Shown one piece after another: positions 431 to 6,519 of a stretch of DNA of 19,429 nucleotides. The stretch comes from Macrostomum lignano. Lineage: Eukaryota. The stretch's first letter is position 1. Every line of letters begins with the position of its first letter. Location: the NCBI GenBank assembly GCA_002269645.1, contig NIVC01005234.1, positions 1 to 19,429 on the forward strand, given 5' to 3'. The translations under genes and the position numbers were made by a program. Below the pieces are notes generated by a model that had not been told where the DNA came from, ran no database searches, and saw only the letters and a list, made by a program, of their open reading frames with translations.

Positions 431-1615
431 AGTATGTTGGACAGAGACAGATCTAGGGAGTGTCGAGTGAGTCTCATCACTGCTGAATCACGCCATTTGC
501 CTAATAGTTTGCCTTGCTTGATCATTTGGTAGGCACTTTAGTGGCCTTGGGGATTCCCTGTCCGCCACCCCATTCCGTTTGTCGTCCAGTGTGCAGCCAC
601 CCCACTCCCGCTATGTACATTTTAACGTCGGTTTAGCGTCGGTAAAAACCGATCGGCCAAAGTTTTATACATTCCTGACGACAAGAAAACATTTGTCATA
701 TTGGGGTTAGGGTAGGGTTAGGTTTTGTGAGTTTTGTGTCGAAGTTGTGAAATGTCGGAGCTGTGAAAGCACCTCCTTTTTGATAACTTTTTAGGGAACT
801 AAAAAATAAGCGTTCGAATACAATTGGACACTGTGATAAAAGGCATAACCAAAATGCAGTAAATGGAGCAAACTGTAGTAGGCCAGCGGTTATAAGTTAT
901 GATACAGAAAGTCAGAAATGCTAACTTGACAATTTATATAATTGAGAATGTTTCAATGCAGCCAATTAACTTCAACTGAATTTTATATAAATTTATTTAT
1001 TAAAGCATGAACTGAAGCGATTTTGAATTACGAATGTTTCATTCTTTATTGACAAACTAACAAATTGAATTGTGTAAACTTAATTCAGCACAAGGGATCA
1101 GTGCAGAGAAATTTGGAGTGAAAAATGATCTGGTTAAACAAATTCCAAATTCCGAATACCTTTTAGCGGAACTGTTACTGTTATGGCAATTGAACGTAAC
1201 CAGACCAGAATTTTTTCATTCTACTATAATATTCTGAGTCGTTGACTAAACATTTATAATATTCTTCCATTCAACTTCCAGAACAAGACGAAAAAATGGT
1301 ACAAAAATAGCATGTTCATCTGACTACTAAGCGATTTATGGATTTTCTGCCAAAGTACTTGAAATACTTTCAGCATTTCATTTTGGACAGTCAGCATCTT
1401 TCAAATTACAAGAGCTGGGGGGAATACGAGCTACAAAAGAAATTTACCTACGCCTTCACAACCAGAAAAAGCATTTAAAGTATTGTAGAATTGCGAAAAT
1501 AATTGAGGCGTGAAACGCGGTGGTTCGTTTGTTTTGGTTTTTGCTTTGATTGTTTTCCGTGCGGAAAATAAGAGGGACTGCGGGCTTGAGTATAATTGCG
1601 TGCTAGGGTGCTGTA

Positions 1616-1758
1616 TATTTATATTCGTGTTAAAAGAACATTCAGGAATCCGGAAAGTTCGAGAAGCAGTTTCTAGAAAGGGGGTGCGCGGGAATTCAAA
1701 ATGCCAAATATGGAAAGTGCGTGTTTACGCGGAAGTTTCTAGAATATAATAGTTATAA
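1616..1758. promoter_or_regulatory. Heat-shock-element cluster with flanking TATA-like boxes (host heat-shock-type promoter)
   Basis: Three perfect nGAAnnTTCnnGAAn elements: aGAAcaTTCagGAAt 1635-1649, gGAAagTTCgaGAAg 1652-1666, gGAAgtTTCtaGAAt 1731-1745. A further TTCtaGAA lies at 1671-1678. TATAAATA is on the minus strand at 1616-1623 and TATAAT/TATAA on the plus strand at 1745-1758. Confidence 0.75.
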
Positions 1759-1988
1759 TACGCTAGCTGCAATACTTTTATATTATTAGTGAATACGCTA
1801 CAACAGTTCCCCCGGAGACGGAGTCACCTGGAGAAGTACAGGAAAAAATTATATACATTAGATGATGAATTGGGGGGGGGGCGTGGACATGTACGTTTGT
1901 ACATGCAGATTTCAAACTGTTACAGCATAGGGGCGATGATGTACACATTCAATAATAAGTGAAACGTTATAACTGGTGAAGTCAAGCT

Positions 1989-2550
1989 AGTAGAAGGCAT
2001 GAGGGGGCTTCTGGGACAAAATTTTTCACGTCCTCCATAATCCACCTAAATCCATCCATATTATCCCTGACAGAATCAGAAAAAAAGGGGGTCGCACTTA
2101 CTCCAAAAACTTCGAACATAATCCCATTAAATCCATCCATATTATCCCTGACAGAATCAGAAAAAAAAGGGGGGTCGCACTCGCTCACAAAACATCCTCC
2201 ATAATCCACCTAAATCCATCCATATTATCCCTGACAGAATCATGAAAAAGGGGAGGGGCCGCACTTGCTCACAAAACATCCTCCATAATCCTATTAAATC
2301 CATCCATATTATCCCTGACAGAATCAGAGCAGGTGTCAACTGATACCTGTTATGCTCACTGACACCGACATCCACCCATAGCATCTTCGAAACAATCAGA
2401 AAATAATCTGCATTCTTCTCCCCACATTCAATCCGCAACGTGCTACCACATCCCTAAGACTTTAAATCATCAGCGCAGGGTCTTTACCCTTTGAAAAAAA
2501 AATAAATTCTCAATAAAAATGTTTTCAGTTGTCTCTCCAGGTTCTTATTA
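1989..2550 (+). repeat. Left terminal inverted repeat (~560 bp) with four ~81-83-bp internal tandem units (2031-2327)
   Basis: Starts AGTAGAAGGCATGAGGGGGCTTCTGGGACAAAATTTTTCAC and matches the reverse complement of 17500-18071. The core ATCCATCCATATTATCCCTGACAGAATCA occurs 4 times. Confidence 0.95.
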
Positions 2551-2704
2551 TAGTAACTCACGCTGAACAGTTCTGCCAAGCTTGTTAATGTCTACTAAGA
2601 TCTATTCATACACAATGCTCTTACATCTAAAATCAACGCTTGCAACTATTTATCTAAGGGAAAATGTAAAACTACCCTCTAGGGCACCAGCTACAGAGCC
2701 AGCT

Positions 2705-2827
2705 ACAAATGTTCCTCAGCCGAACAAATGTTCTGTCGCCGAACAAATGTTCCTCAGCCGAACAAATGTTCCTCAGCCGAACATTTGTTCCTCAGCCCAA
2801 CAAATGTTCCGCCGCCGAACATGTACA
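2705..2827. repeat. 19-bp tandem repeat (ACAAATGTTCCTCAGCCGA) x ~6.5
   Basis: Units at 2705, 2724, 2743, 2762, 2781, 2800 and a partial at 2819. Unit junctions create the palindrome GAACA-AA-TGTTC. Confidence 0.92.
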
Positions 2828-3239
2828 GAGCAAATATCTCTTCCCCCATGCAAAAGCTTTATGCCCTTACTAACTCAGAGTACGCAGGCCCCGTATACAG
2901 AGAGAACCTCTCTTCCTATACACAAGCTTCTCCTCACCGTGAGCATTTATTTCTACATAGCAAGTTCTCTCTCTTTCCACTTCTCTACCTACAGTCAATC
3001 CCGCAGCACGTATGGGTATGCTACGTATGGCATACGTATGGCCAACCAAAACCATACCCCCGATCCTCCATTGTCCCTCGTCCCACAGCTCTTCTCAGTC
3101 TACTCAATTCTCTCCCCTTATCCCCAAAGCCAAGTCGTCTCGCCGCTATCAGGCGGACACCCTCCCCCCCCCCAAAGTCTGTCGGGTAAGGAAGAAAGCT
3201 TATTTATACAACTACTTTTGAAGAGTTACTCGGTTAAAA

Positions 3240-4007
3240 ATGTCTGACTTGTCTGTCACACCAGATCTATCTCTATTCTCTAAAATTTTACAGCTAAATC
3301 AGTTAGCAAAAGATAACAATAAACACGAACTACTCTTATCTGAAGATGATTTAATTCATTTAAAAGTTACATTAGATTGCCCCTTAGTACCTAGTTGTGG
3401 CAATTTAGAAGATCGATCAAAAAAATTAAATGAAGAGCGCATGGATGTAGATGAGGATCAAGATCAACCAGCAAGAAAGAAAGTAAAAGTAAAGAAGCAA
3501 AAACTACGGCCAACTGGTGAGACGCTTCATCAATATCTTTGCGCAAAAGTATTTGAATTTGAAGGGGTCGATGAATTTATTCACCCCTATTCTATTGTTG
3601 ATACAAATATGCCGTTATCTGTAGAAGAACAACTACAGACGGCAGTCACAAGTTTAAAAAGATGTAATAATCGTATGCTCATTGCCACATACATCTGTGG
3701 TGTATGGTTTAACCACAACGCAGCGAAATATAGAATAGAACATCCTGAAGAAACTGTTAAATGTAAAAGTTGTGATGATCAGGTTTTGGAGTTTTTGCAA
3801 CGACATGGGATAACATATGCTAAAAGCACTATTAGAAAAATGTTGTCTCTTAGTAAAACATTACATGATTATCCTCGTTTTTTTAAGCTAAATATAACAT
3901 TTGAGGAACTTTACACCTTAAAAAATGATATTGAAGACATGTTAATGTGTTCAAATAAATATAAAACCTATTGGAGCATGGGTGTTATTCAAATAAAAAA
4001 AGAATAG
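3240..4007 (+). CDS. Polinton accessory protein of unknown function, 255 aa, intact
   Basis: Uninterrupted ORF with the A-rich start context (TTAAAAATG) shared by the element's genes. It has an acidic patch, a basic NLS-like RKKVKVKKQK, a CxxC motif, and an AATAAA just downstream. Confidence 0.8.
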   Translation: MSDLSVTPDLSLFSKILQLNQLAKDNNKHELLLSEDDLIHLKVTLDCPLVPSCGNLEDRSKKLNEERMDVDEDQDQPARKKVKVKKQKLRPTGETLHQYLCAKVFEFEGVDEFIHPYSIVDTNMPLSVEEQLQTAVTSLKRCNNRMLIATYICGVWFNHNAAKYRIEHPEETVKCKSCDDQVLEFLQRHGITYAKSTIRKMLSLSKTLHDYPRFFKLNITFEELYTLKNDIEDMLMCSNKYKTYWSMGVIQIKKE

Positions 4008-4079
4008 TAAATAAAAATATTAAAAATAGAAAATAAATATAACTTTTCTTTTCTTTATCTTCTTAATAATAAGAAGATA

Positions 4080-4165
4080 ATTCTCATCTTCTCTAAATCT
4101 TCTTCTTCTTCTTCTTCTTCTTCTTCTTCTCTTCTCTTCTCTTCTTCTCTAAATCTTCTCTTTCT
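4080..4165. repeat. Polypyrimidine (CTT)n/(CTTCT)n microsatellite between convergent genes
   Basis: Read directly: tcttcttcttcttcttcttc...ctcttctcttctcttcttctct. Confidence 0.9.
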
Positions 4166-4412
4166 TGTTTCAGACAAGTTAATTTTTTTCCATCTTTAAA
4201 AGGAAAAAGAAAGTAAGGAGATTGCTAATATCAAATTACTTTTTTTCTTCTTTTAAAGATGCGCGGGCTGTAGCAGCGGCCTTCGAGTGGCAGCCTGTGT
4301 GAGTACCAAATTTGGGAAACTAACTGCTGCTCAAAAGTATATCATGTCATCCATTTATTTTTCTTTTGCTGTTATTTTCTTAAAAAGTTTCTCTTGAATT
4401 TTCTTGCTTGAA

Positions 4413-4868
4413 TCATTCTGCTCTCTTAACCCCCAGCTCTTTCAGCAGTCTTCCAGGTTCTTTACGTGGCGCGTGCAATATAAAGCCCACCCCTTCTCTC
4501 AAACAACCGCCCACCCCCAACCCCAACTTTGTCTTACCAAAAATAACCACCTTGACTAATTTCCTAGCAATCGACTCACGAAATCCGCTTGAAGCCCCCA
4601 TATGGTCTAGTCTCTTAAGCATTTCTTTGTCCCACCGATTCTTCTCCTCAGGAAAATCTCTATACTTGATGTCATGCCACATGCAGACAGAGTCTAGCTC
4701 GTTCACAGGCTCATGCCCAGGATGTGGATTATTGTTTTTATCTAACTGTATTTCAAGTGGATTCAAAGGCCCGCAATATTTATAGCCGGGAACTGTCCAG
4801 CCTTTGTTTGGACGAGGAAGCTTTTCTATCAGTCCATGTGAATCTATTTTACCACCAGAGCGCTGCAT
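4413..4868 (-). CDS. Parvovirus VP1u-type phospholipase A2 (PLA2X-like), ~151 aa from MQRSGGKID, intact
   Basis: Ca-binding loop PGYKYCGPLNP, then PVNELDSVC, catalytic HDIKY, later D in WDKEM, and KLGLG. The true start is probably ATG 4868 (AATAAAATAATG context), not the ORF-track start at 5111, which overlaps the integrase. Confidence 0.9.
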   Translation of the reverse strand: MQRSGGKIDSHGLIEKLPRPNKGWTVPGYKYCGPLNPLEIQLDKNNNPHPGHEPVNELDSVCMWHDIKYRDFPEEKNRWDKEMLKRLDHMGASSGFRESIARKLVKVVIFGKTKLGLGVGGCLREGVGFILHAPRKEPGRLLKELGVKRAE

Positions 4869-4898
4869 TATTTTATTTAAAATTTTCTTTTTAAATAA

Positions 4899-5934
4899 AT
4901 GACAGATCAGAAACTTAAAAAACTCTACTACAGCGACAAAGGATTCTTTGTAGGCAAAAATGCTGTTAGTAAACTCATGGAGCTGAGTAAGGAACCAAAA
5001 GCTACAGTAGAAAAATGGCTCTCTAAGCAGGCTGTCTTTCAAGTCTATTTCCCACCAGTAAAATTTGAAAGGCCCCATTTCAGTATTTATAAACCTAATG
5101 AGGCGCACCAAGCAGATCTTCTGTTTCTCCCCAATGACTCGGGCTACAAGTATGCTCTCACAGTAATAGACATTGCTTCCAGATATAAGGAAGCTCGCCC
5201 ACTCAAGACGAAGAAGTCAGAGGTTGTTGCCAGCGCACTGCAAGATATTTATAAAAACTCTCCGCTCACATACCCCAAACCTTTATGACCGACCCGGGTA
5301 AGGAATTCATGGGTGCAGTGAAATCCCTTATGGAAAAGAAAAACACAGAGATTCGCTATGGCAGAACAAACTTGCACAGAGACCAGGCTTTTGTGGAAAG
5401 ATTCAATCTAACTCTAGCCAAGAGGCTATTCACTAAGCAGACAGCTGAAGAGCTGAAACTAAAAAGTGGTCAGTACTATTCAAAATGGACAGACCGGCTC
5501 CCCACTGTTATAGAACAACTGAACAATGAAGTCACACGTATGACTGGATTGAAACCGTCCCATGCAATTAAACAAGACACTGTCGAACTTAGGCATCTCA
5601 TAGAACAGACAACAACACTACAACCCCACACAACACACACAACACAAAACACACCTCGAACTACCCTAAGCTTCCAGGAGTTGAATCACCATACATACTG
5701 ACAAACTCTGAGTTTCTACGCTTTTTATATCTACCTGGAGAGCTAGAGAAGGACACCAAAAGAAGAGCTACAGATCCATACTTCAGCCTTGATGTACATA
5801 AAATAGACAGACATTTTACCTCCGACTCCGGTGACTATTACTTTTTATCTCAGGCCTTTAACCCTAAATCCCCCACGCGGTCATTCACTAGAGCTGAACT
5901 CCTAGTGATACCAGCTGACACAGAAATTAATTAA
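4899..5934 (+). CDS. Retroviral-type DDE integrase (Polinton integrase), ~345 aa after repairing two -1 frameshifts (~5280 and ~5593-5690)
   Basis: HQADL (D), TDPGKEF (D), FVERFN (E). The third frame gives the Polinton-type C-terminus FLYLPGELE...RRATDPYFSLDVHKI...RSFTRAELLVIPADTEIN*. Confidence 0.93.
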
Positions 5935-5950
5935 AATATTAAAATAAAAA

Positions 5951-6396
5951 ATGACAAAGATTGAAACCAGAACCATCAATAAACTCAATAAAATCATTGA
6001 ATCAAAGAAACCAGGTATTATATCAATTAAAGGTGCCAAAGTAAAAATCGATCCCACGCAGCAAATACTTCAGTGTAATGAGCAAAGACACAGCATCACA
6101 GATGAAAAGTCAGGAGGAATCCTACCATTAGCAGCTCTTATCCCGATTATTGCAGGCGCTGTAAGTGCCGCAGGTGGTGTAGCTGGAGGTGTAGCAACTG
6201 CCGTTAAAGCTGGGAATGATAGGCCCACCAGCTTGAATTGCAAAAGATTGCAAGAGACAAAGGTATAACAATTAAGGCAGGAGAGGGCTGCCCCGATCGT
6301 GATGATTGTGAGAATGAAAATTCTGTAAGCAAGTCTGACATTGTCAAAGCAATCATGACACTGCACAATGCTGGGTTTACAATAATGCGGATGTGA
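5951..6396 (+). CDS. Putative core/membrane protein with adenovirus pX(mu)-like motif, ~148 aa after one -1 frameshift (~6220)
   Basis: KSGG-ILPLAALIPIIAGAVSAAGGVAGGVATAVKA resembles adenovirus pX MRGG-ILPLLIPLIAAAIGAVPGIASVALQA. The alternative frame continues AHQLELQKIARDKGITIKAGEGC...AGFTIMRM* to 6396. Confidence 0.7.
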
Positions 6397-6519
6397 TGAG
6401 GTTTAAAACCCCACTTTATCCAGCTTCATAAACCTAGCGCTACTGATAGGATGTAGAAACAGTTCAACTTTTCTATCAGGGTGGTCACCCTCAAAATTTT
6501 TTTTATTTTAGAGAAAAAA

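Follow-up and report, generated by a model that had tools for sequence, protein, structure and literature searches.

How a Polinton comes to lie next to a promoter that appears built for heat, and whether host stress can reach its viral genes from there, is the question raised by this locus of Macrostomum lignano. The sequence-only reading had proposed that the insertion targeted a heat-shock (hsp-type) promoter and that heat could drive transcription into the element, thereby coupling its reactivation to host stress. The explanation towards which we lean is that a host HSF promoter fires leftward, away from the element, and that the Polinton landed beside it by accessibility or accident and not by dedicated targeting. 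The features of the window, i.e., the whole stretch of 19,429 nt that was analysed, are listed in Table 1.

Table 1 Coordinates of the features in the window, ordered along the sequence.
Feature	Position	Strand	Details
Putative first exon/leader, left-facing gene	1448-1593	-	A-rich tract, 8-codon ORF, splice donor 1447 (5/7 consensus)
Initiator YYANWYY, A at 1593	1589-1595	-	30 nt from TATA; putative start of left-facing gene
Perfect TATA box TATAAATA	1616-1623	-	faces left, away from Polinton; TATAWAWR scan
HSE 1, perfect nGAAn-nTTCn-nGAAn	1635-1649	.	pattern scan and simulations
HSE 2, perfect three-unit	1652-1666	.	pattern scan and simulations
Fourth HSE, one mismatch	1665-1679	.	extends the partial site at 1671 of the sequence-only reading
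Candidate short first coding exon, right-facing gene	1701-1716	+	ATG 1701 or 1710, donor 1717; weak
HSE 3, perfect three-unit	1731-1745	.	intronic (first intron) in one candidate model of the right-facing gene
Imperfect TATAAT-type boxes	1745-1760	+	TATAA-like boxes of the sequence-only reading
Second perfect TATA TATAAAAG	1775-1782	-	right of cluster yet faces left; may be chance in AT-rich DNA
Candidate host exon	1790-1890	+	GC 0.48, donor 1891; phase-compatible with right-flank exon
Left copy, possible 7-bp target-site duplication	1982-1988	+	5/7 match to 18072-18078
Polinton/Maverick (adintovirus-type)	1989-18071	.	16,083 nt
Left TIR	1989-2550	+	562 nt; four 81-89 nt repeat units; AATAAA 2501, 2512; acceptor ending 2540
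Parvovirus-type phospholipase A2-like ORF	4413-5078	-	PF08398 E 4e-13
rve integrase, in three frames	4899-5934	+	PF00665 E 3e-5, below curated cut-off
pX domain ORF	5951-6268	+	PF05829
Protein-primed PolB, in pieces	6450-10160	+	PF03175 E about 1e-4 to 2e-4, below curated cut-off
Adenain-like protease, broken by frame changes	10330-10782	+	PF00770 E 4e-5
A32-like packaging ATPase, intact	12424-13224	-	PF04665; 37 relatives, best 78% identity
Double jelly-roll major capsid, three frames, without in-frame stop	15122-16406	+	PF21738 relatives; tblastn
Presumed minor capsid, three frames	16381-17287	+	position only
Right TIR	17500-18071	-	572 nt
Putative glutamine-rich host exon	18283-18539	+	branch-point-like motif and acceptor
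Putative next host exon	18653-18705	+	in frame with 18283-18539

Judged by its length, its TIRs and its predicted core genes (PolB, integrase, ATPase, adenain and capsid), the element is a Polinton/Maverick. Polintons are described as 13-25 kb long, with TIRs of 100-1500 bp (10.1101/2023.08.22.554363), and both the size and the two TIRs of the element fall within these ranges; a target-site duplication of 5-8 bp is a further Polinton feature. Pfam scans of 22 of the 26 ORFs matched the PLA2-like, rve integrase, pX, PolB, adenain and A32 ATPase families. The integrase and PolB matches lie below the curated cut-offs because both genes are in pieces, and the N-terminal PolB pieces and the minor capsid ORF pieces gave no Pfam match. 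The major capsid was recognised through ORF 15762, five relatives of which carry the double jelly-roll family PF21738. Overall, the element resembles Alpha-type adintoviruses in its 16 kb, TIRs of ~560 bp, pPolB, rve integrase, adenain, A32 ATPase and double jelly-roll capsid (PMC8502044; 10.1101/2023.08.22.554363), and PLA2-like and pX-like ORFs are present as well (PMC8502044). However, the PLA2X fusion of Alpha adintoviruses (PMC8502044) is replaced here by separate ORFs on opposite strands, PLA2 (-) and pX (+), and the element differs from Polintons and Alpha adintoviruses in its non-identical TIRs, imperfect duplication and mostly frameshifted core genes. The PLA2-like ORF stands back to back with integrase ORF 4899-5288 (+), their 5' parts overlapping, and nine head-to-tail copies of a 21-bp unit (13262-13451) are found just upstream of the ATPase gene. 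ORFs 2588 and 2728 were rejected as genes, having coding scores of 0.02 and 0.05 per codon and overlapping a 19-bp tandem repeat. Neither Rfam families nor tRNA genes were found in the sequence. The gene set (PMC8502044) and the splice signals point to an animal host.

A canonical HSE consists of three or more alternating nGAAn pentamers (10.1101/2025.10.15.682611), and in the left flank three sites fit this perfectly and a fourth does so but for a single mismatch. The three perfect three-unit HSEs (pattern GAANNTTCNNGAA, starts 1636, 1653 and 1732) are the sole ones in the 19,429 bases, with 0.39 expected, and are found exactly where the sequence-only reading had placed them (1635, 1652 and 1731). 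Three such sites anywhere in the sequence were reached by 1 of 200 shuffles. Moreover, the sites span 111 nt, and three perfect HSEs within 120 bp arose in none of 600 Markov simulations, the analytic expectation being ~1e-6. The partial site at 1671 is likewise present (TTCTAGAA, 1671-1678) and widens to the three-unit HSE with one mismatch. No perfect HSE occurs in the Polinton, in either TIR or in the right flank. The HSEs belong to the host flank, because the inverted-repeat alignment ends at 1989/18071, 243 nt past the last HSE; the same alignment end rules them out as part of the TIR and agrees with the distance of ~240 bp first estimated between promoter and element. An LTR or MITE around the HSEs was also rejected, as 1400-1988 has neither a second copy in the window nor an outstanding inverted repeat.

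The core promoter adjoining the cluster points away from the element. A left-facing TATA box had been proposed 12 bp from the first HSE, and TATAAATA indeed lies 12 nt from the GAA of HSE 1 and 11 nt from its first pentamer. With consensus patterns for TATA and Inr, a perfect TATA within 30 nt combined with such an initiator is expected in ~0.001 of random draws, per side. Relative to the putative leftward start, the HSEs are positioned at -42 to -152. Two perfect TATAWAWR boxes are present in 1450-1990, both on the minus strand. The A-rich, leader-like tract claimed for the minus strand at 1510-1560 does contain 51% A, but this level is reached by 3.3% of all 51-nt windows and is thus only moderately unusual. 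A leader intron is common in hsp90 and hsc70 genes. Since TATA, initiator, leader and donor all face left, this well-formed promoter is directed leftward, away from the element.

By its architecture, 1593-1745 is an hsp-type promoter, in the leftward direction only, with HSF binding predicted from the motifs. Inducible promoters of the hsp70/hsp90 type similarly carry several HSEs no more than 350 bp from the start site, near which both the first HSE and the TATA box lie (PMC4336284; 10.1101/2025.10.15.682611); unlike these, the present promoter has a predicted inducibility only and no chaperone coding sequence recognised in the window. Pfam comparison of 17 of the 31 frames in the left flank gave no significant match to a chaperone/hsp or any other family, and the single match there (GST_C_3, E 0.049) was rejected as falling below its cut-off. 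Hence, the hsp-type label first given to this promoter holds for HSEs, TATA and Inr, while an hsp gene is unproven, because no hsp coding sequence was found leftward in these frames. The left gene may start beyond a 48-bp minisatellite (1-433), and its coding part may fall outside the window. A related 14-nt inverted copy of the minisatellite occupies 667-680, followed near 705-723 by a short GGGTTA tract of telomere-like type; by resemblance, we take the minisatellite and the 620-730 region to be a possible non-autonomous transposon in the intron of the left gene.

TATAA-like boxes facing the element were also part of the earlier claim, yet no perfect TATAWAWR is present on the plus strand of 1450-1990, where six sites have one mismatch each, and the second perfect box, right of the cluster, faces left as well. 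Measured from the imperfect right-facing boxes, an Inr match at 1780 is 35 and 25 nt away, neither of which is the usual spacing, and no convincing start site for a right-facing gene is evident. The right side of a would-be bidirectional promoter offers one-mismatch TATA boxes together with a plausible spliced gene model. The best plus-strand donors in 1600-1988 are 1717 and 1891 (each 5/7; background 1/56), and with an acceptor at 1789 they yield an ATG-led open frame ending in the phase required by the right-flank exon. Such a model of at least 30 codons was obtained in 108 of 3000 dinucleotide shuffles and one of at least 10 codons in 431 of 3000, with both the model and the codon thresholds chosen post hoc, after seeing the data. 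The candidate exons have a GC content of 0.48 compared to 0.30-0.38 in the introns, and HSE 3 would sit in a first intron of 73 nt. For an alternative start near 1780, the present sequence offers no in-frame ATG. Across the element, the two right-flank exons show intron signals and a joint frame over 103 codons, but they lack an ATG to the right of the element. Taking the Polinton away would leave an intron of 309 nt, and the Polinton begins 98 nt past donor 1891. Based on these phases and splice signals, there are roughly even odds that the Polinton interrupts an early intron belonging to a second host gene, which faces right. No homologue of the right-flank exon was found among 75 candidates at E<=1 or among 1.84 billion representatives, with no usable Atlas match and no Pfam family, and the left candidate exon 1790-1890 had no solved-structure match at E<=10. 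The spliced glutamine-rich gene (18283-18705, +) may form a coiled coil, and a 75-bp G-rich minisatellite, presumably intronic, occupies 18745-19248.

What a transcript going right would encounter bears on the proposed reactivation. It would meet ATTAAA at 2126 and 2293 and then the two AATAAA signals of the left TIR, which are absent from the right TIR; altogether, the plus strand of the element has 17 AATAAA, and 25 ATGs precede ORF 3240. Among 1293 plus-strand AGs, the acceptor ending at 2540 scores within the top 1.8%, and it is conserved in the right TIR; a phase-0 (host) frame spliced to it stops after 15 codons. Strong acceptors are thus seen at the inner ends of both TIRs (2521-2541, +; ~17510, -), facing inward; they may be used by a TIR transcript of the element itself or act as traps for host transcripts. 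Downstream of the TIR acceptor, the frame closes at a stop overlapping the ATG at 2588. Right-going transcription would read ORF 3240, integrase, polymerase, protease and capsids in the sense direction, and the ATPase together with four other ORFs in antisense. Thus, rightward read-through would likely produce a truncated host transcript and not a balanced expression of the element. Were the right-facing gene real and driven by HSF, read-through would be obligatory and sense for integrase, polymerase, protease and both capsids. HSEs can in principle act in both directions, while the head-to-head HSPA1L promoter, which was not heat-induced, exemplifies one-way action (PMC4336284). In a coral, polintovirus expression followed colony and not heat treatment, although a treatment effect could not be assessed statistically (PMC11131425). 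The proposal of heat-driven transcription into the virus therefore loses ground to the leftward core promoter, the poly(A) signals, the acceptor at 2540 and the 25 ATGs, and keeps some through the plausible right-facing host gene and the frameshift-only damage described below. Stress-coupled reactivation of the Polinton appears unlikely.

As sequenced, the genes for integrase, polymerase, protease and both capsids are fragmented. A tblastn comparison, for which 7 of 42 relative proteins were used, placed the capsid in three frames without an internal stop against five capsid relatives and showed the ATPase to be whole. In addition, a codon-usage tracker applied to 11 regions (11,788 nt within 4899-17287) detected 15 frame changes and no in-frame stops, with region limits chosen by the analyst and a model trained partly on the same DNA; in a control with 300 stops planted in random codon strings, it detected 254. 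At 1% neutral decay, ~6 stops would be expected over this length. Under neutral decay, each indel is normally accompanied by several substitutions, and damage by frameshifts alone therefore suggests indel error in the assembly; of the 14 gaps between the TIRs, 7 likewise extend homopolymers. However, the two capsid breaks placed by homology have a longest homopolymer run of 3, and such breaks outside long homopolymers argue against plain assembly error, as do the 40 substitutions and 14 gaps by which the TIRs differ. The frameshifts may be assembly error, and the view that the copy is certainly dead was dropped, as the damage consists of frameshifts without stop codons.

According to the explanation we favour, HSF trimers would occupy the four HSEs upon heat or proteotoxic stress and fire the leftward TATA/Inr core, sending a transcript into a gene whose coding part is not recognisable within the window. 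The Polinton would have integrated 243 nt beyond the distal HSE and 396 nt upstream of the putative start, leaving the HSE-TATA module unbroken, probably in the early 309-nt intron of a plus-strand host gene that starts within the HSE cluster or slightly to its right. Promoter-proximal accessibility or accident most likely determined the site, without a dedicated targeting mechanism. Heat may drive a weaker right-going transcription into the left TIR, which would mostly terminate at the poly(A) signals or be caught by splicing at 2540, so that the main effect would be damage to host transcripts rather than a working switch for virus reactivation. A bidirectional HSF promoter beside a whole element, with stress-driven plus-strand RNA joining donor 1891 to acceptor 2540 or deeper and starting mobilisation, seems quite improbable. 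It draws on the candidate right-facing host gene, whose donor lies 98 nt before the element, the high-ranking and conserved acceptor, the 15 frame changes without a stop where ~6 stops would mark 1% neutral decay, and the ability in principle of HSEs to act both ways (PMC4336284). Against it speak the leftward core promoter, the AATAAA signals at 2501 and 2512 and 17 in total, the 25 early ATGs, the 15-codon frame past 2540, the minus-strand position of the ATPase and four other ORFs, and the capsid breaks outside long homopolymers; so do the coral data, in which expression followed colony and not heat, though no statistical test was possible (PMC11131425). There is correspondingly little chance that an intact Polinton sits in the first intron of the right gene of a bidirectional HSF promoter, with the TIR acceptor feeding a heat transcript into the integrase-polymerase arm. 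If true, host proteotoxic stress would trigger an endogenous animal polintovirus via a borrowed host promoter and not via HSEs of its own.

Transposon-borne HSEs are known (PMC6927752; PMC12801592), and the cluster could itself belong to another mobile element or repeat, comparable to Helitron1_CE or HSE-bearing LTRs, with the Polinton nested in or beside it; the glutamine-rich spliced gene could then be a transposon gene. The minisatellites in both flanks, and the lack of a homologue or Pfam family for either flank gene in the searches run (17 of 31 frames in the left flank), are consistent with this origin. It nevertheless seems rather unlikely, as 1400-1988 is without a second copy in the window, its best inverted repeat is only 25 nt at 72%, and the HSEs form no tandem array but are followed by TATA, Inr, leader and donor in the order of an ordinary host gene. 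The element may also be a chimera of two family members, formed by ectopic recombination or mis-assembly, with a real promoter and a right flank from another locus. In that case the intron model fails, and mis-assembly could make the adjacency of promoter and Polinton itself false. The TIRs differ by 40 substitutions (7.3%) and 14 gaps, seven of which extend homopolymers, although the coding DNA shows no stops. Each TIR holds four repeat units of 77-98 nt (1996-2328; 17731-18071) whose variants are ordered differently between the arms, left unit 2 having 4 substitutions relative to right unit 4 and 11 relative to right unit 2. The target-site duplication at the exact ends is imperfect, with 5/7 as the best match and 1/5 and 1/6 at shorter lengths; given this duplication and the differing TIRs, the two flanks may not be one locus. 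On the other hand, a 5/7 match at the exact ends has a chance of 0.017 (0.048 over lengths 5-8), the exon phases agree across the element, and the differences between the TIRs are densest towards the inner end (in the non-repeat part, 2 substitutions fall in the first 100 columns versus 13 in the last 139), which makes a chimera unlikely. TIR divergence was rejected as a clock, since the repeat units are shuffled and substitutions crowd the inner end. The claim that the insertion targeted the promoter is not supported here: a single copy, lying outside the HSE-TATA module, cannot show targeting. An integrase of this family guided to HSF-bound or paused promoters, with copies enriched at stress genes, is very improbable. 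In its favour, a random insertion within 250 bp of such a cluster would have a probability of 1e-5 to 1e-4 (illustrative, assuming 10-50 clusters and a genome of 0.2-1 Gb), but a scan of many Polintons or windows combined with an ordinary bias to promoters and open chromatin could turn up such a hit. Moreover, mavirus integration sites are described as having no obvious consensus (10.1101/068312), and a report of Polinton promoter targeting, or of a Polinton at an HSE promoter, was not met in the literature searched, outside of which subscription papers and supplements may hold cases. A search for other family copies in prokaryotic genomes gave 63 pattern matches, none of them confirmed.

The insertion is thus probably an opportunistic one beside an HSF promoter, a type of event already known from P elements, whose insertion into hsp promoters of Drosophila has the accessibility of promoter DNA as its documented cause (PMC1592238). 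In both cases, a DNA mobile element lies beside an HSE promoter, and accessible chromatin is the proposed cause; P elements, however, form a hotspot of more than 200 insertions at approximately -90 to -160 in Hsp70 and Hsr-omega (PMC1592238), as opposed to the single 16-kb Polinton here, which lies at -396 and outside the HSE module. ONSEN, LTR families of Macrostomum and Helitron1_CE likewise combine HSEs with a mobile element and a proposed heat transcription (PMC12801592; PMC6927752), but their HSEs are internal and travel with the element, whereas here they lie in the host flank, with no perfect HSE in the element. Any heat coupling is therefore limited to this copy. A Polinton copy beside a strong HSF-type promoter offers a natural test of a host stress promoter reading into a Polinton, and the same locus can show whether a Polinton TIR acts as a splice trap. 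Should read-through be absent, the locus would amount to an ordinary insertion near a promoter, interesting chiefly because it may disrupt a host gene. The mavirus provirophage is comparable as an integrated Polinton-like virus that stays silent until triggered (10.1101/068312). Its trigger is giant-virus infection, acting hypothetically on the element's own promoters (10.1101/068312), in contrast to the host promoter beside one insertion considered here. TATAAAW occurs 21 times in the whole window, compared with 9.9 expected (reached by none of 200 shuffles), and 13 of these sites are inside the element, several of them back to back; the excess possibly reflects TATA promoters of the element's own.
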